A stretch of 61,028 nt of DNA from a virus: positions 1-61,028 of IMG/VR virus record IMGVR_UViG_3300003322_000515. One strand, 5' to 3'. The notes under the pieces were generated by a model. It was not told the origin of the DNA. It made no database searches and worked only from the letters and a program-made list of their open reading frames with translations. A program made the translations under genes and the position numbers. Below are positions 179 through 60,260 of the stretch, in pieces (within the stretch, counting starts at the first letter, position 1; each line of letters opens with the position of its first letter).

Positions 179-1081
179 TTAGGCGGCGCCGAATAGGTCA
201 GGCGTAGGTGGCGCGTTGTCGTTCGCTGGTGGCTTCTTGGCGCGGGGCTTTAGGGAGCGATCGTCGGTGGCGGAAAGTCTAATAGACGCTGTCGCGGCGT
301 ATTCCGGATTCAGTTCGCAAAGGATTGCGTTCCTGCCCAACCTTGACGCAACGGCGCCAGTCGTGCCGCTACCTCCGAATGGGTCCAGAACCGTGTCGCC
401 CTCGATGGTAGTCGCCAAGACACATGGCTCCACCAGCCGCTCGGAGAATGACGCGCCATGGTCACTACGACCAGTCGGTGCGATTTGCCAGACAGAGCCG
501 TTCGCATAGGGAGGCAGCTTCGACTTGTCGAAACGGTAGCTCTTGCTCTTCGTGAGCAGGAAGATTTGTTCGTGGCGATTCGGAAGGCGATCAACGGACG
601 GCTCCGGCTTGCCGAAGTTCTTGGCCCATATTATTTCCTGCCTGAGAAACCAGCCATCGGCACGCAATGCGAAAGCGACCATCCACGGGATGCCGAACAT
701 ATCCTTCTCCTTGAGGTCTCCGTCGTTGATGGACAGGCGGGTCAGCCCGAGCTTTGTTGTCTCTGCCCACGAAAGCTCCTTGAACCCATTCAACGATGGC
801 TGATGGCTGCTTGATCGAATTCGCCTCCTGTTATTCGCGGTGTCGCCAAGATTCAGCCAGAGGGCGCCGTCGTCCGTCAACACCCGCCGCACTTCTCTAA
901 AGACGGAGACAAGCTGTGCCACGAAGTCGGAAGGCGTCATCTCCATGCCTATTTGGTCCGCGTGGCCGTAGTCGCGAAGCGCAAAATATGGAGGACTTGT
1001 CACGCAACAGTTCACGCTGCGCTCCGGCAGGGTGCGCAGGATGTCGCGGCAATCACCAAGTCTCAGATCAACCCGCATCAC
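179..1081 (-). CDS. DNA methyltransferase (beta-class N4-C/N6-A type, TSPPY motif)
   Basis: CCVTSPPYFALRDYG catalytic motif and DPFGGSGTT SAM motif. GTG 1081 / ATG 1078 overlaps the int stop. The C-terminus is PANDNAPPTPDLFGAA. Confidence 0.9.
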   Translation of the reverse strand: MMRVDLRLGDCRDILRTLPERSVNCCVTSPPYFALRDYGHADQIGMEMTPSDFVAQLVSVFREVRRVLTDDGALWLNLGDTANNRRRIRSSSHQPSLNGFKELSWAETTKLGLTRLSINDGDLKEKDMFGIPWMVAFALRADGWFLRQEIIWAKNFGKPEPSVDRLPNRHEQIFLLTKSKSYRFDKSKLPPYANGSVWQIAPTGRSDHGASFSERLVEPCVLATTIEGDTVLDPFGGSGTTGAVASRLGRNAILCELNPEYAATASIRLSATDDRSLKPRAKKPPANDNAPPTPDLFGAA

Positions 1082-2250
1082 CCTTCCCTCCTCTTCTTGT
1101 CCAAATCAGTCCGCTTGCCCATGCCCTCCGCAAACTTGCCAGACCACGCCAGGGGATCATCCAGCCACGGCAACCGAGCCCACAACTCGGGCACCGGCAA
1201 CTTGTTGATCGCTTCAATGAGTGGCGCCTGCGGCACGTTAGTGTAGTGACGGCTCATGTCATCCGCTGCGTGGCCAAGTATCTGGTCCTTGATGTGCGGA
1301 TGGACACCCGCGACAACCAACCCTGTCGAGCAACTGTGGCGGCCGGTATACGGGGCAATATCTTTAATGTCGCTCCGGCGGCGAGCGCCGTTGATCGCTG
1401 ACTTGAGGCCACCACCACCTCGCCCCTCTTCATCTGTCGCTATCTCCTCGTACGGTTCGCCGCGTGGCGTTCGAAATAGCCGCGGCTCGTCTTCCAATCC
1501 AGGCCGCTTCAGCAGGGACTCGAATATCGGTACCAAGAACTCATGGATCGGAACTCCTCGAGGCTCGCCTGTCTTTGTGTGTGTTAGCGTGATCCAGCGA
1601 CCGGAGACATTGACCTCGCCAACCTCAAGCGCGAATAGCTCGATCGGCCGCATGCCGGCGTAAAATAGCGTAGTCATCAGCATGGCCGGGCCTGGCGACA
1701 TGGCCGCAATGAACTTTGCGGCATGTTCGTATTCAACTGGAAATGTGCCGGCGCGGCGCTTCGCTAGGCGCACGACGTTCGTGCCCTTTGGCTTCTTCGG
1801 ACGCGACCACTGGCGAACATCTGCCCATCCGTTCTTAACGGCATGGTTCCAGACTGCGATGAATGGCGTGTAGCATTGACGATTGCGCGTTTCTGGTTGA
1901 GCATTTGGATAGAGTTTGCGCGCCGCCTCGTCCAAATCGTTTTGTTGTATGTCTTTCAGCTTGGTATCATAAAAGTAGTCTAGCAGGCCGTCGCGCGATC
2001 CGTCCTCATAAACGGAGCCGGTAAAGCGCTTATCTCCACCTGCCTTCCAATAGGAATCGACCGCTTGCGCAAATGTACGTGTGGCCTTCGGGCCGAACAC
2101 GGCGTCGCTGACGAGTTCAGCTTCTCGCTTTATGCGGAGCGCTTCCGCGACTTCTTTCTGCTCTGTGCGAGCAGACTCGCGGACAGCTTGTCCATGGACG
2201 GTGCCTGAGATCCACCAGACTTTGCCACGCTTGTAGAGTTTGAGGGGCAT
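1078..2250 (-). CDS. int: Tyrosine recombinase / phage integrase
   Basis: N-terminus MPLKLYKRGKVWWISGTV; C-terminal catalytic region GRHSCSTG...LGHAADDMSRHYT; adjacent to att. Confidence 0.92.
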   Translation of the reverse strand: MPLKLYKRGKVWWISGTVHGQAVRESARTEQKEVAEALRIKREAELVSDAVFGPKATRTFAQAVDSYWKAGGDKRFTGSVYEDGSRDGLLDYFYDTKLKDIQQNDLDEAARKLYPNAQPETRNRQCYTPFIAVWNHAVKNGWADVRQWSRPKKPKGTNVVRLAKRRAGTFPVEYEHAAKFIAAMSPGPAMLMTTLFYAGMRPIELFALEVGEVNVSGRWITLTHTKTGEPRGVPIHEFLVPIFESLLKRPGLEDEPRLFRTPRGEPYEEIATDEEGRGGGGLKSAINGARRRSDIKDIAPYTGRHSCSTGLVVAGVHPHIKDQILGHAADDMSRHYTNVPQAPLIEAINKLPVPELWARLPWLDDPLAWSGKFAEGMGKRTDLDKKRREG

Positions 2251-2441
2251 CGTAGAACATCCTTTATGGCTTCGATGTCTTTGTCTGTAAAAAGGATATC
2301 ACGGCCTCGCACCATGCATAGGCCGTGCTGTTTGGCGATCTTTGCAACGCCTCTGTTGGTAAGGCGAAGATATTCAGCCGCCTCGGCAAGAGTGTAAATC
2401 CTGCCGAGCGGCCCGTTGTTATCGTTGTCGTGGTGCCTCAT
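2130..2441 (-). CDS. xis: Excisionase-type helix-turn-helix DNA-binding protein
   Basis: YTLAEAAEYLRLTNRGVAKIAKQHGL HTH. Lies immediately upstream of int; the 3' end overlaps the int start in another frame. Confidence 0.7.
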   Translation of the reverse strand: MRHHDNDNNGPLGRIYTLAEAAEYLRLTNRGVAKIAKQHGLCMVRGRDILFTDKDIEAIKDVLRCPSNSTSVAKSGGSQAPSMDKLSASLLAQSRKKSRKRSA

Positions 2442-2644
2442 CCTCTGCCCTCCTCGTTAAGAGCGGCACGGCCAAGCTGAGTGATCCGATATCCATTGCT
2501 GACCCAAATCACCAATTTCTCATGGATGAAATAGGAAAGGTCGTTGTCGGCTTTTTCAGGTGGAACGCCACCCCAAAGAGGAACATGGCTGTTTGCGAGG
2601 TCCGTCAATTGGCTTTTCTGTGGGCCAAAAAGGTAAACCATCAT
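2438..2644 (-). CDS. Hypothetical protein (68 aa)
   Basis: ORF track; ATGA-type 4-nt overlaps with both neighbours. Confidence 0.6.
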   Translation of the reverse strand: MMVYLFGPQKSQLTDLANSHVPLWGGVPPEKADNDLSYFIHEKLVIWVSNGYRITQLGRAALNEEGRG

Positions 2645-58709: not shown

Positions 58710-59068
58710 CCTACCTTCACCAATTCTACGTTGGCCAGGATGTCGTCTGCATCGATGCTGGCCAGCCGCCATCAACCACACTGCCCTCCGAACTTACGGA
58801 GGGCGCAATCTACAAAATCCGCTGGATAGGTCCATACGAACACTACCTCGACGGCGAGTACATCGGCGTTCGGCTTGAGGGCATTGACCGCGGCACTTGT
58901 CAGATTTGGGGTTATGTCGATCCGCCGTTCCGCGCCACTCGGTTTCGGCCGCTTGTGGCTGACAGGCTTGGCAGCTTGAGAGCGTTGCTAGTGCCGGGCC
59001 AGCCGTTGGCGCCTAGTGTGGATGAGCCACGCCGGAAGGTGACGGTAAAAGAGGAGGAGACTGTATGA
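58706..59068 (+). CDS. Hypothetical protein (120 aa)
   Basis: ORF track; GTGA overlap. Confidence 0.6.
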   Translation: MTYLHQFYVGQDVVCIDAGQPPSTTLPSELTEGAIYKIRWIGPYEHYLDGEYIGVRLEGIDRGTCQIWGYVDPPFRATRFRPLVADRLGSLRALLVPGQPLAPSVDEPRRKVTVKEEETV

Positions 59069-59538
59069 CGGACATGGTGGAGAAGCTAATAGCTCTGACT
59101 GGAGGCGACCCCAAGTGGAAAAGCAACGCGTCAGAAATGTCGCAGCCAGATGTAGATTTGGCAAAACTGCTTGACGATAGTGGATACCTTGGCAACTACG
59201 GGTCAGCAACTACTCCAGGCGGAACGTTCTTGGTAACGATTGATGGCGCTATCGCGATGGGCTCACCACCTGATTGGTATGTTGAAATGTCTCCACATGA
59301 GCGCGCCACGCACAAGGCACCATGGATGCGAACAGAGCAAGATTATCTCACAATACTGAGCGAGAGGCCGGACGCATGGTTTAGTGAATACGACAATACA
59401 AGTTTGCTTTTTTCGATGATCGATAGCGGCTTACTGAGGTTGAGGAAGGACAAACCATCAACGCACACGTCAATGTGCACGTCGCTCAATCTCGAATTAA
59501 CGCCCGAAGGCATGGCAGCACTAAAGGAGAGATCATGA
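59065..59538 (+). CDS. Hypothetical protein (157 aa)
   Basis: ORF track; ATGA overlaps. Confidence 0.6.
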   Translation: MTDMVEKLIALTGGDPKWKSNASEMSQPDVDLAKLLDDSGYLGNYGSATTPGGTFLVTIDGAIAMGSPPDWYVEMSPHERATHKAPWMRTEQDYLTILSERPDAWFSEYDNTSLLFSMIDSGLLRLRKDKPSTHTSMCTSLNLELTPEGMAALKERS

Positions 59539-60260
59539 ACATTCCACTCTTCACCACAGAAGGCGACCTTACCGCTGTGCCGCACGCCAATGACAATATC
59601 CCGGCCGAGCTCGTGCCGTTGGCGCAGGCGATTGGGAAGGTGGATCCTAGTCTGCCAGCTTCATGGGGCGGAATGGATGGACATGACGCGAGCCTCACGA
59701 CAACGCCCCACGGCTTGCCTGCCAACGACAACCTTCCGCCAGTCATCGCCTTCACAGGGCAAGCCGGCAGCGGCAAGTCCACGGCCACACGCTATCTTGT
59801 CGAGCGGCACGGCTACACGCTAGTGAAGTTCGCAGGGCCGCTCAAGGACATGATGCGGGCGCTTGGGCTTGAGGAGGGCCAGATCGAAGGCGACAGAAAG
59901 GAAGTGCCGACTTCCCTGCTTGCTGGTAAGACACCGAGGCATGCAATGCAGACACTCGGTACTGAGTGGGGCCGCAATTGCATTGGTGAGGACTTTTGGG
60001 TTGGTGTCTGGCGACAGCGCGCCAATGTCATCATCGCGAATGGTGGCCGCGTTGTCACCGACGACTGCCGTTTCCCCAATGAGGCGCAAGCCATCCGCCG
60101 ACTAGGTGGAGATATCTACCGCATTGTTGGCCGTGGCGGCATTGCCGGAGGCCACGTGTCGGAGAGGGGTTGCGGCGACGAAGATCTGGTGATTGACAAC
60201 GTCGGTAGCTTGGAAGAGCTGCATGACAAGGTCGAGAAAGCTTTGGTGCGGTACGCATAA
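59535..60260 (+). CDS. P-loop kinase, deoxynucleoside-monophosphate-kinase-like, with an N-terminal extension carrying two ANDN motifs
   Basis: The ATG at 59535 lies inside ORF 59475-60260. Walker A FTGQAGSGKST. Confidence 0.65.
   Translation: MNIPLFTTEGDLTAVPHANDNIPAELVPLAQAIGKVDPSLPASWGGMDGHDASLTTTPHGLPANDNLPPVIAFTGQAGSGKSTATRYLVERHGYTLVKFAGPLKDMMRALGLEEGQIEGDRKEVPTSLLAGKTPRHAMQTLGTEWGRNCIGEDFWVGVWRQRANVIIANGGRVVTDDCRFPNEAQAIRRLGGDIYRIVGRGGIAGGHVSERGCGDEDLVIDNVGSLEELHDKVEKALVRYA

Follow-up and report, generated by a model that had tools for sequence, protein, structure and literature searches.

The window, a 61,028-nt stretch of viral DNA, carries the pattern GCN-AAY-GAY-AAY at 22 sites in 16 ORFs, 21 on the plus strand and one (215-226) on the minus strand; every site listed in a preliminary description was found, each reads A-N-D-N within an open frame, and none occurs in any other frame (Table 1). 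ANDN is carried by proteins of replication, nucleotide metabolism, DNA modification and regulation, as well as by the portal; sixteen ORFs do carry the motif, but they are not all unrelated, as first described, since the two methyltransferases have a common domain. The head-completion, tail and lysis genes of the window lack ANDN, as had been noted for the last two, and the copies leave a gap from 33.7 to 56.8 kb (23,092 bp; P = 0.0006 under uniform placement). Repressor and integrase have neither ANDN nor an Ala-Ala end.

That such a tetrapeptide should be expected well under once is borne out by composition and by three shuffles, including the codon and dinucleotide controls proposed earlier: against 22 copies observed, amino-acid composition predicts 0.19, shuffling of residues within proteins 0.21 (max 3), of codons within genes 0.23 (max 3) and of dinucleotides across the whole window 0.31 (max 3), an enrichment of about 100-fold. 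No tetrapeptide is more frequent in the window proteome than ANDN, AAND being the runner-up at nine copies, and ANDN accounts for 22 of 26 AND-x and 22 of 27 x-NDN tetrapeptides.

ANDN copies fall outside recognised Pfam and PHROG domains, in tails, N-terminal extensions and interdomain linkers, and two thirds of them are internal or N-terminal. The AlphaFold model of the RadD-like helicase has a mean pLDDT of 86.9, with its three copies in blocks at 60-74 and 35-47; together with the domain boundaries, this model predicts that the motif is located in disordered protein parts. The placement at termini and linkers originally proposed thus stands with regard to recognised domains but not necessarily at 28192, which lies within a block conserved in relatives (DWDG.AANDNIAWPLAT) and is possibly part of a folded protein.

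Table 1. ANDN sites and further Ala-Ala C-termini in the window
Feature	Coordinates	Strand	ORF or protein	Residue	Context
ANDN	215..226	-	N6/N4 DNA methyltransferase, 179-1081	286-289/300	Tail PPANDNAPPTPDLFGAA-stop, full tag look-alike; contains clamp-binding-like PDLFG
ANDN	9210..9221	+	Small ORF 9171-9389 (72 aa)	14-17	End VAA; kept as AANDN(H/K)...MxPHNGGC in RHph_X2_25, AP-16-3, 16-3
ANDN	10339..10350	+	ORF 9700-10881 (393 aa)	214	End IAA; linker between repeated SH3-like KFK[IV]GDRVR[VI] modules
ANDN	13246..13257	+	DUF669 (SSB-like) protein, 12775-13347	158/190	Ala/Pro-rich C-terminal tail beyond DUF669 domain (14-119)
ANDN	14140..14151	+	ORF 13402-14256 (PHROG of unknown function)	247/284	QPANDNMP; end PLAA
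ANDN x3 (17089, 17110, 17125)	17089..17136	+	Sigma-70-family protein, 17077-17583	5, 12, 17	N-terminus MSVAANDNDNNANDNNANDNRPA; all three precede region 2 (31-88)
ANDN	18488..18499	+	RadD-like helicase, 17927-19741	188	Insertion between ResIII (2-157) and Helicase_C (269-365); pLDDT 60-74
ANDN x2 (19652, 19676)	19652..19687	+	RadD-like helicase, 17927-19741	576, 584	Tail VANDNHPQAANDNGKGMPDWERDMMDEVPF-stop, disordered; pLDDT 35-47
ANDN	23207..23218	+	Second N6/N4 methyltransferase, 22442-23251	256/269	Tail KPADMFAANDNTPVATLKGAA-stop, full tag look-alike; clamp-binding-like ADMF precedes
ANDN	23648..23659	+	ORF 23576-24394	25	Upstream of PHROG match (47-257); start codon uncertain, hence translation least certain of all copies
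ANDN	24341..24352	+	ORF 23576-24394	256/272	Tail VAANDNHQSAPTARNVSHA-stop
ANDN	26024..26035	+	Primase-polymerase/AAA_25 protein, 24878-27196	383	Acidic, Pro-rich linker between Prim-Pol (18-190) and AAA_25 (395-584)
ANDN	28192..28203	+	ORF 28027-28788	56	End LAA
ANDN	33695..33706	+	Portal protein, 32471-33736	409/421	Tail QPANDNNPDDEAQAA-stop, 13-residue tag look-alike past portal domain (57-377); TNDN in RHph_Y3_1
ANDN	56787..56798	+	SbcD-like DNA repair exonuclease, 55506-56828	428/440	Tail AAANDNVPAEQARAA-stop, 13-residue tag look-alike; kept in X2_25, AP-16-3, TM3_3_14B, 16-3
ANDN	57347..57358	+	MazG-like pyrophosphatase, 57119-57751	77	Directly ahead of domain (about 87-197)
ANDN	57847..57858	+	HD-type dNMP phosphatase, 57751-58479	33	N-terminal extension ahead of HD domain (63-240); relatives keep KYVPANDN(V/T)P
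ANDN	59586..59597	+	dNMP kinase, 59475-60260	38	N-terminal extension
ANDN	59721..59732	+	dNMP kinase, 59475-60260	83	Immediately ahead of P-loop (LPANDNLPPVIAFTGQAGSGKS); position kept in X2_25, AP-16-3, 16-3
Ala-Ala end, no exact ANDN	5556..5789	-	ORF starting M-NDN		Degenerate AANNNRP at position of ANDN in AP-16-3 and 16-3 orthologues
Ala-Ala end (..TEGAA)	9368..9703	+	ORF		
Ala-Ala end (..TGVAA)	11360..12151	+	AAA_24 (Sak4-like) ATPase		
Ala-Ala end (..KRMAA)	16601..17080	+	First sigma-70-family protein		
Ala-Ala end (..EKRAA)	20580..21362	+	ORF		
Ala-Ala end (..LAIAA)	27430..27918	+	ORF		
Ala-Ala end (..LNKAA)	30888..32471	+	Large terminase		KAA/MAA end also in X2_25, AP-16-3, TM3_3_14B, Y3_1
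Ala-Ala end (..RQDAA)	33733..34365	+	Prohead protease		
Ala-Ala end (..AAQAA)	39136..39519	+	Tail-region ORF		

A peptide motif and its resemblance to the ssrA tag

Because the sites use the complete set of synonymous codons in a fixed frame, with DNA conservation in their flanks confined to the codons for a preceding Ala or Pro and a following Pro, selection acts on the peptide and not on a DNA site, as had been argued from the codon variation; ANDN is a short linear peptide motif. Pooling 66 instances from five phages sharpened its reported context, a hydrophobic residue or Pro before the motif and Pro after it: Ala (48%) or Pro (30%) predominates at position -1, Pro fills the second position past the motif in 50% (9.5-fold enriched), and the residue between is variable, giving a phage consensus of [A/P]-A-N-D-N-x-[P/A]. 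One of the phage ANDN peptides is AANDNVPAEQARAA.

The proposed match to alphaproteobacterial ssrA tags proved correct for three published tags, those of Sinorhizobium meliloti (ANDNYAEARLAA), Agrobacterium tumefaciens (ANDNNAKEYALAA) and Caulobacter (AANDNFAEEFAVAA), which all start with ANDN and are conserved as A-N-D-N-x-A. The variable position of the bacterial (A)ANDN-x-A coincides with that of the phage consensus, although the Pro that is strong at +2 in the phage motif is Ala in the host tags. Among 585 non-redundant ANDN copies, 200 lie 5-16 residues from the stop, with a sharp onset at seven residues (40 copies, as against 14 summed over distances 0-6); about a third of copies lie 7-15 residues ahead of the C-terminus, usually an Ala-Ala one, where host tags have 8-9 residues after ANDN. 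Ala is the last residue in 146 of the 200 C-proximal copies and Ala-Ala in 109, so that, judged by sequence, these copies appear to mirror both parts of the tag, the head bound by the adaptor and the end recognised by ClpX. Host tags end in LAA, whereas Leu precedes the terminal Ala-Ala in none of the 109, and for this reason the phage ends may be poor ClpX degrons.

Ala-Ala ends are themselves overrepresented, at 17 of 94 window ORFs versus 6 of 175 ORFs of the S. meliloti replicon pSymB (P = 1e-4), and they are associated with ANDN both in the window (P = 0.0013) and in its IMG/VR relatives (odds ratio 4.1, P = 3e-13); half of the ANDN carriers have no such end.

ANDN in related phages

ANDN is a family-wide feature of temperate siphophages of about 60 kb that infect Rhizobiaceae and related Hyphomicrobiales, a family that includes the classical S. 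meliloti phage 16-3. Among Rhizobium and Sinorhizobium phages, RHph_X2_25 has 20 copies, AP-16-3 has 23, TM3_3_14B at least 12 and 16-3 itself 18, its Xis starting MRVAANDN; the less related RHph_Y3_1 has just two. Across 33 IMG/VR relatives there are 181 copies in 185,185 residues, while 150 kb of pSymB contain none in 46,075 residues, a clean result, for this host replicon, on the earlier concern that the motif might be equally frequent in the host. Related phages retain it, and in many cases its place within a diverged tail is unchanged. Of 120 helicase homologues, 99 have ANDN although the rest of the tail varies, and the tandem pair is present in most of the 120. Helicase relatives from other lineages showed no ANDE or ANDD counterpart. 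Dozens of IMG/VR relatives, with mosaic genomes, bear the motif, often in non-homologous proteins; the motif is convergent as well as family-wide.

A possible link to SspB and ClpXP

In gamma-proteobacteria the head of the ssrA tag is held by the adaptor SspB, and alphaproteobacterial SspB probably has the same role. In E. coli the stretch of the tag bound by SspB comprises its first seven residues, AANDENY (PMC9963277). SspB-family (PF04386) proteins are present in Rhizobium, Agrobacterium, Neorhizobium and Ensifer, and that of R. leguminosarum matches the solved Caulobacter chains 2QAS/2QAZ (E about 1e-36) as well as A. tumefaciens 2NYS; such matches indicate that Rhizobiaceae encode SspB orthologues.

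The favoured reading, which we put at roughly even odds (a probability near 0.5), is ssrA-tag mimicry by ANDN, by which early proteins of the phage would become clients of the host's SspB-ClpXP; the literature searched yielded no description of it. By binding the ANDN head, host SspB dimers would hold the phage protein at ClpX, and tethered proteins with an accessible Ala-Ala end, or some other weak degron, would be unfolded and degraded by ClpXP. Since the residue at -3 is never Leu, the ClpX-binding part is probably weak, so that strong adaptor dependence and saturable degradation are expected, as for engineered DAS-type tags. The likely benefit is that early lytic proteins would be short-lived: those that leak in lysogens or are made before a lysogenic decision would be cleared, and strong expression in the lytic cycle would exceed what the limited SspB and ClpXP can handle.

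Several features sit uneasily with tag mimicry: the Pro at +2, the missing Leu before the terminal Ala-Ala, the internal or N-terminal location of two thirds of the copies and the half of the carriers that have no Ala-Ala end. Part of the pattern may have other sources. Where a gene's stop adjoins the start of the next gene, Ala-Ala ends are commoner (43% versus 17%), so operon architecture may lie behind part of their enrichment. The partner of ANDN could also be a different hub protein, of the host or of the phage; a phage-encoded partner is possible because ANDN-rich phages have many of their own genes in common, a beta clamp and a Cas4-like exonuclease among others. For tag mimicry, the odd clients are the portal, terminase and prohead protease, stable structural proteins in which a degradation signal would be out of place; their ends are possibly hidden by assembly, which would reconcile these features with stability.

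A recurrent tetrapeptide in the window proteome

The preliminary description claimed 22 GCN-AAY-GAY-AAY sites in the window, read as Ala-Asn-Asp-Asn (ANDN) in 16 open reading frames (ORFs), and all 22 are present exactly as claimed, each in an open frame, with ANDN absent from the other frames. Its rough estimate that such a peptide should occur well under once also stands: 0.19 copies are expected from the amino-acid composition of the proteome, 0.21 from shuffling residues within proteins, 0.23 from shuffling codons within genes and 0.31 from dinucleotide shuffles of the window, the largest value in each of the three shuffles being 3. 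ANDN is the top-ranked tetrapeptide of the window proteome by count and is sharply defined, making up 22 of the 26 AND-x and 22 of the 27 x-NDN tetrapeptides; nine of the 22 copies read AANDN. The ANDN-bearing proteins (carriers) were said to be unrelated, which is correct for the 16 ORFs in general and incorrect for the two methyltransferases, which have a domain in common. Tail and lysis genes are free of the motif, as first observed, and so are the head-completion genes, with an empty stretch of 23 kb (P = 0.0006); the lysogeny module contains one copy only.

Selection had been attributed to the peptide rather than to a DNA site, and codon usage agrees: across the window and 33 related viral loci around helicase relatives from IMG/VR, all synonymous codons occur at each of the four positions, and the DNA flanks carry near-zero information except at the preceding codon (Ala or Pro) and the second following codon (Pro). 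The motif is not conserved independently of reading frame; its frame is always the coding frame. At the protein level, the context originally given as [hydrophobic or Pro]-A-N-D-N-x-P can be sharpened to [A/P]-A-N-D-N-x-[P/A], Ala being the most frequent residue before the motif (48%).

The placement at termini and in linkers is likewise upheld, the motif lying outside the recognised domain in every carrier that has one. Copies are found C-terminal to methyltransferase, DUF669 and portal domains, N-terminal to sigma region 2, the HD domain and the kinase P-loop, and between domains, both between Prim-Pol and AAA_25 and between the two helicase lobes. An AlphaFold model of the helicase built with 60 homologues has a mean pLDDT of 86.9, with lower values of 60-74 near residue 188 and of 35-47 across residues 571-604, and all three helicase copies of ANDN fall in these low-pLDDT blocks (35-74). 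The motif thus combines the properties of a short linear motif (SLiM): a short conserved core, variable disordered surroundings and non-homologous carriers. The copy at 28192, in a block conserved among relatives, may be structural and hence an exception to the disorder rule; that at 23648 precedes the family match, and the start of its ORF is uncertain.

The phage family and the spread of the motif

The window, of 61,028 bases, begins and ends with the same 25 bases, and the 3' half of a tRNA-Thr lies at its left end (see table); together these represent either a prophage att core or a circular-assembly overlap carrying attP. Downstream of the repressor runs a long rightward operon of replication, modification, packaging, head, tail, lysis and nucleotide-metabolism genes. 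From the tRNA-Thr half and end repeats, together with the layout of integrase, repressor and operon, we therefore take the window to be a complete, or att-bounded, temperate siphophage. Its closest named relatives are Rhizobium phage RHph_X2_25 (X2_25), Sinorhizobium phage AP-16-3, RHph_TM3_3_14B (TM3_3_14B) and the classical S. meliloti phage 16-3, and its helicase is 74-82% identical to prophage proteins in Agrobacterium, Rhizobium and Sinorhizobium. The genomes of these relatives are mosaic, with 25-90% identity in homologous parts; the more distant RHph_Y3_1 (Y3_1) has head genes in common with the family, a different replication module and no clamp gene.

Several other features of the family emerged alongside. 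HNH and Seg-like homing endonucleases are abundant in its genomes, and one close helicase homologue (P0076, 933 aa) contains intein/homing-endonuclease domains (PF05204, PF05203 and PF14528). Two further genes are conserved in relatives: one of the YspA/SLOG family, between the sigma factor and the helicase, and, downstream of the lysis region, one for a trypsin-like peptidase that has a membrane segment at its N-terminus. A family-conserved protein of 393 residues consists in part of repeated KFK[IV]GDRVR[VI] SH3-like modules, and its residues 352-380 resemble the C-terminal domain of ribosomal L7/L12 (Pfam E = 5e-6).

Features of the window and peptides discussed in the text
Feature	Position	Strand	Remarks
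Identical 25-base ends	1-25 and 61004-61028		AACTGGTGCTGCTAGAGAGATTTGA
tRNA-Thr, 3' half	4-51		reverse complement
Methyltransferase tails	179-226 and 23186-23251	- and +	beta-clamp-binding-like peptides PDLFG, PADMF
Tyrosine integrase	1078-2250	-	adjoins DNA methyltransferase and leftward operon near tRNA-Thr half
Small ORF	5556-5789	-	starts M-NDN
CI-type repressor	7055-7780		HTH plus S24 peptidase
SH3-like repeat protein	9700-10881		
DUF669 protein, Ala/Pro-rich tail	13258-13347		ends KPWGARK
Phage-encoded beta clamp	14315-15379		ends canonical LMPMRV
Sigma-70-family gene, first	16601-17080		
Sigma-70-family gene, second	17077-17583		
YspA/SLOG-family gene	17583-17927		
RadD-like helicase, end	19718-19741		DMMDEVPF
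Trypsin-like peptidase	54529-55344		
Full tag mimics at four window protein ends			ANDNAPPTPDLFGAA; ANDNTPVATLKGAA; ANDNNPDDEAQAA (portal); ANDNVPAEQARAA
Fifth window protein end			ANDNHQSAPTARNVSHA
Phage ANDN peptides			AANDNVPAEQARAA; PANDNNPDDEAQAA
Helicase tail			VANDNHPQAANDNGK

The motif holds up in related phages, with 20 copies in X2_25, 23 in AP-16-3, 12 in the first 50 kb of TM3_3_14B and 18 in phage 16-3 (DQ500118; L167+L168), where Xis begins MRVAANDN, the portal has the motif in its tail (ANDNQEDEAEAA), and the helicase and both methyltransferases are carriers too. The 33 IMG/VR loci hold 181 copies in 185,185 residues, about 1 per 1,000, in ORFs called by a crude longest-ORF heuristic; 53 further copies outside the called ORFs lie, on inspection, in real genes. 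By comparison, 150 kb of the S. meliloti replicon pSymB, taken as the host control, has 0 ANDN in any frame (46,075 ORF residues), which rules out the motif as a general trait of host proteins. A scan of IMG/VR for AANDNxPA returned at least 51 loci with three or more ANDN; 47 of the 51 are, among the matches listed, related to the window phage, and the others listed include C5-methyltransferase loci with ANDN at both protein ends.

Which proteins carry the motif differs among the mosaic relatives, non-homologous proteins bearing ANDN in different genomes. In homologous proteins it stands out as an island while the tail around it varies: 99 of 120 helicase homologues contain it, the usual form being ANDN-x-P-x-x-ANDN, and the near variants ADNDN, AVNDN and ATNDN in helicases point to a putative core of NDN. 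Y3_1 has just two exact copies, both P-ANDN-x-P in linkers, and TNDN in its portal tail. The small minus-strand ORF of the window has AANNNRP at the site occupied by ANDN in its AP-16-3 and 16-3 orthologues, a case in which the motif has either decayed or arisen at an orthologous position. In the tails of 150 diverse helicase representatives, examined for co-variation of the motif, we found no ANDE- or ANDD-type motif, ANDN itself occurring only in the four closest.

Likeness to the host ssrA tag

That alphaproteobacterial ssrA tags begin with ANDN had been stated at the outset, and proved right for S. meliloti (ANDNYAEARLAA, from the tmRNA ORF in a proteogenomics supplement, the 12-residue tag having been detected by mass spectrometry), A. 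tumefaciens (ANDNNAKEYALAA) and Caulobacter (AANDNFAEEFAVAA); the comparison is with these three species. In all three tags A-N-D-N is followed by a variable residue and then a small one, as it is in the phage motif, which shares the (A)ANDN head; the Ala that often precedes it corresponds to the alanine carried by tmRNA in tagged proteins. Alphaproteobacterial SspB reportedly binds the same part of its tag as does its E. coli counterpart. The latter binds the first seven tag residues, AANDENY (PMC9963277). SspB-family proteins (PF04386) are present in Rhizobium, Agrobacterium, Neorhizobium and Ensifer, and those of Rhizobiaceae are clear orthologues of the solved SspB of Caulobacter (2QAS/2QAZ) and A. 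tumefaciens (2NYS), the evidence being the database proteins matched; hosts of the phage family encode both tag and SspB orthologues. In the window itself ARAGORN found 0 tmRNA genes and Rfam gave no match at gathering score, so that an RNA family or a tmRNA/tRNA gene behind the motif was rejected, and no SspB-, ClpS- or Clp-related domain was recognised among 40 phage ORFs searched with Pfam and 10 with PHROGs.

The likeness includes overall length. With all loci pooled, just 14 of 585 non-redundant copies lie 0-6 residues from the stop codon; 40 lie at 7, and 22, 32, 24, 12, 14, 20, 15 and 12 at 8 to 15. The copies near the stop (C-proximal copies) are thus clustered at 7-15 residues, a range that takes in the 8 or 9 residues following ANDN in the host tag. 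An Ala-Ala carboxy terminus, as in the host, is found in just over half of those near the end: among the 200 copies that lie 5-16 residues before it, the last residue is Ala in 146 and the last two are Ala-Ala in 109, and 26 have the Pro-Phe end of the helicase. Before the terminal Ala-Ala in these 109 stand A (23), E (20), V (17), G (10), R (10) and others, and never L; the Leu or Val that precedes Ala-Ala in the host (LAA/VAA) is therefore not reproduced as a rule, Leu occurring in 0 of 109. Phage and host versions differ in other ways too, the former being gene-encoded and the latter added by trans-translation. Most phage copies are internal or N-terminal, Pro takes the place of the host's Ala two residues past the motif, and the middle of the phage tags is unrelated in sequence to that of the host.

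Ala-Ala ends are themselves in excess, closing 17 of 94 window ORFs against 1.2 expected, 12 of 97 in X2_25, 13 of 97 in AP-16-3 and 6 of 175 in pSymB (window versus pSymB, P = 1e-4). They also go together with ANDN, both in the window (8/16 carriers versus 9/78 other ORFs, P = 0.0013) and in the IMG/VR loci (69/149 versus 126/731, odds ratio 4.1, P = 3e-13). A free Ala-Ala end is thus available to half of the window carriers and to 109 of the 200 C-proximal copies, and is irrelevant to internal and N-terminal ones. Window proteins with this end include the large terminase, portal and prohead protease; the repressor and the integrase have neither it nor ANDN. The two sigma-70-family genes are adjacent and overlap, the first ending in Ala-Ala and the second starting with three ANDN.

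The codon pair seen most often at gene ends in the family is GCAGCA, as a rule followed by TGA, and Ala-Ala ends make up 43% where a stop abuts the next start versus 17% elsewhere, so that operon architecture, or better ORF-call quality at such junctions, contributes to the excess. Stop/start overlap as the sole cause is ruled out, the 17% among ORFs with no abutting start standing against 3.4% in pSymB; with its 43% class it remains a partial confounder of the enrichment.

Possible roles of the motif

Since both halves of the tag are over-represented, associated with each other and held at a minimum spacing when combined, and since such a spacing would be expected if two proteins had to sit next to each other on one peptide, mimicry of ssrA is favoured. 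We put at about 0.5 the probability that ANDN is an ssrA-tag mimic making its carriers clients of host SspB-ClpXP. On this view SspB, bound to the ANDN head, would hold the carrier at ClpX, and degradation would follow where the carrier exposes an Ala-Ala end or has some other weak degron. The missing Leu before Ala-Ala suggests weak direct recognition by ClpX, and hence a degradation that would be strongly adaptor-dependent and saturable, as with the engineered DAS and DAS+4 tags, in which a weakened ClpX-binding end is joined to an intact SspB-binding head. The phage tags similarly join an intact head to a non-optimal C-terminal tripeptide, which predicts adaptor-dependent, tunable degradation, although the engineered tags are synthetic and E. 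coli-based whereas the phage design is a natural one. Rapid turnover would make sense for a temperate phage in carriers such as the nucleases, helicase, primase, methyltransferases, sigma factors and small regulators, and in the Xis of 16-3; the ends of portal and terminase could be hidden once assembled.

A more ambitious proposal, whose chances we place just short of even, is that the phage family has convergently decorated its early proteome with the host ssrA tag, its adaptor-binding head throughout and the complete two-part form at many C-termini, so that SspB-ClpXP would set the lifetimes of ~20 proteins and form a saturable self-destruct layer sharpening the lysis-lysogeny decision; this would be the first systematic mimicry of a host SLiM by a bacteriophage.

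Gene-encoded ssrA-like ends, natural SspB-dependent substrates and phage proteins degraded by ClpXP, Lon or FtsH are all known already. E. coli RseA(1-108) is a natural gene-encoded substrate of ClpXP that depends on SspB; it and the ssrA-like 'C-motif 1' substrates resemble the phage proteins in having a gene-encoded or cleavage-exposed end of Val/Ala-Ala-Ala type and an upstream adaptor-binding stretch on the same chain. The SspB-binding stretch of RseA, however, is unlike the ssrA head, and such cases are single host proteins rather than a proteome-wide viral motif. Host AAA+ proteases clear lambda O and MuA/Mu repressor (ClpXP) and lambda Xis, N and CII (Lon/FtsH), and these temperate phages rely on host proteolysis for the short life of early regulators and replication proteins—the Xis of 16-3 carries ANDN N-terminally—but through individual unrelated degrons; the literature searched described neither a motif common to many proteins of one phage nor a copy of the ssrA adaptor-binding head. 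In the literature searched we found no prior description of one adaptor-binding motif, identical to the head of the host tag, arising convergently at ~20 sites in unrelated phage proteins. The phage system would be degron or adaptor-motif mimicry on a proteome-wide scale.

The alternative with most in its favour, less likely than ssrA mimicry yet to be taken seriously, is that ANDN docks to another hub protein, of phage or host. Such a hub would bring early proteins together in a factory for replication and nucleotide supply, and the match to the ssrA head would be coincidental or due to a shared binder other than SspB. The majority of carriers do work on DNA or nucleotides, tandem copies suggest avidity, the tails are arrays of other docking motifs (helicase D[DE][IV]PF; methyltransferase QADLF/PADMF), ANDN-rich genomes belong to a single phage family whose members have many genes in common, the beta clamp included, and the preference for Pro at +2 is unlike host tags. 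A hub of this kind accounts neither for the sharp 7-residue minimum before the C-terminus nor for the Ala-Ala ends and their link with ANDN, and it does not explain why portal, sigma factors, Xis and small regulators bear the motif; moreover, typical P-ANDN-x-P copies occur in Y3_1 and in C5-methyltransferase loci unrelated to the window, and the phage ORFs scanned yielded no recognisable candidate for a peptide-binding protein. The same binding as in ssrA mimicry could also serve another purpose: abundant ANDN proteins may saturate SspB and Ala-Ala ends ClpX, blocking degradation of ssrA-tagged or regulatory host and phage proteins in lytic growth rather than controlling the carriers. Some 20 copies per genome, many of them internal or tandem with no degron, could bind the adaptor unconsumed, and SspB/ClpXP capacity is limited, with queueing documented for E. 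coli in PMC12013620. Yet full-length look-alikes of constrained spacing suggest delivery of the carriers themselves, a single highly expressed decoy would be cheaper than motifs spread over 16 proteins, and no evidence names a protein that would be protected, so that we hold a decoy to be improbable.

We give very little credence to ANDN as a sliding-clamp-binding motif that recruits enzymes to the phage's own beta clamp, even though the family encodes one and numerous carriers are DNA enzymes: known clamp motifs are hydrophobic (QL[SD]LF, QxxL(x)F), a consensus from which the polar ANDN departs, the phage clamp retains its canonical C-terminus, methyltransferase tails hold separate, canonical-looking QADLF/PADMF beside ANDN, Y3_1 has typical copies with no clamp gene, and portal, sigma factors and nucleotide enzymes are improbable clamp clients. 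As for a nucleic-acid signal, a mobile-insertion remnant or an effect of composition or chance, 21 of the 22 copies do lie on one strand; this bias follows gene orientation, however, the sole copy in a minus-strand gene being on the minus strand. The free third positions, the uninformative flanks and the 0.2-0.3 copies obtained on shuffling leave such readings next to no probability, and a DNA-level or chance origin was ruled out by residue, codon and dinucleotide shuffles, six-frame counts and codon and flank analysis.

If ssrA mimicry is the true explanation, phages, like eukaryotic viruses, would evolve host-mimicking SLiMs proteome-wide, the trans-translation tag system would be a handle exploited by viruses, temperate phages would possess a global, so far unrecognised, post-translational control of early gene products, and a natural set of graded, adaptor-dependent degradation tags would be at hand for alphaproteobacteria. 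Its predictions are directly testable because phage 16-3 and S. meliloti are genetically tractable, an established system in which the phage carries 18 copies and the host tag has been seen by mass spectrometry. Even with a partner other than SspB, a docking peptide enriched ~100-fold in unrelated phage proteins points to an interaction hub.

The tails that carry ANDN hold further docking-type peptides. The tip of SSB (DDDIPF), beta-clamp motifs (QL[SD]LF) and the SLiM mimicry of eukaryotic viruses resemble ANDN as short motifs in disorder, convergent in unrelated proteins and sometimes tandem, and peptides of the SSB-tip and clamp types adjoin ANDN in the same phage tails; ANDN differs from them in sequence and presumably in partner, and we found no described case of proteome-wide use of a docking motif by a phage. 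The window helicase, which is RadD-like with four invariant Cys, shares an acidic stretch and an [IVLM]P[FYW] end with over 100 close homologues and with 40 of the 150 diverse representatives (helicase set P0001-P0270), and the resemblance of this D[DE][IV]PF end to the SSB tip suggests that the helicase may borrow the SSB docking peptide. In the methyltransferase tails the clamp-binding-like peptides directly adjoin ANDN, the corresponding tails of relatives reading QADLFG(V)AA (among L017, L022, L023, L030, L034 and L128). The tail of the weakly SSB-like DUF669 protein finishes in relatives with RKNPWSK or KRPWGTK, and may end in another conserved terminal peptide.
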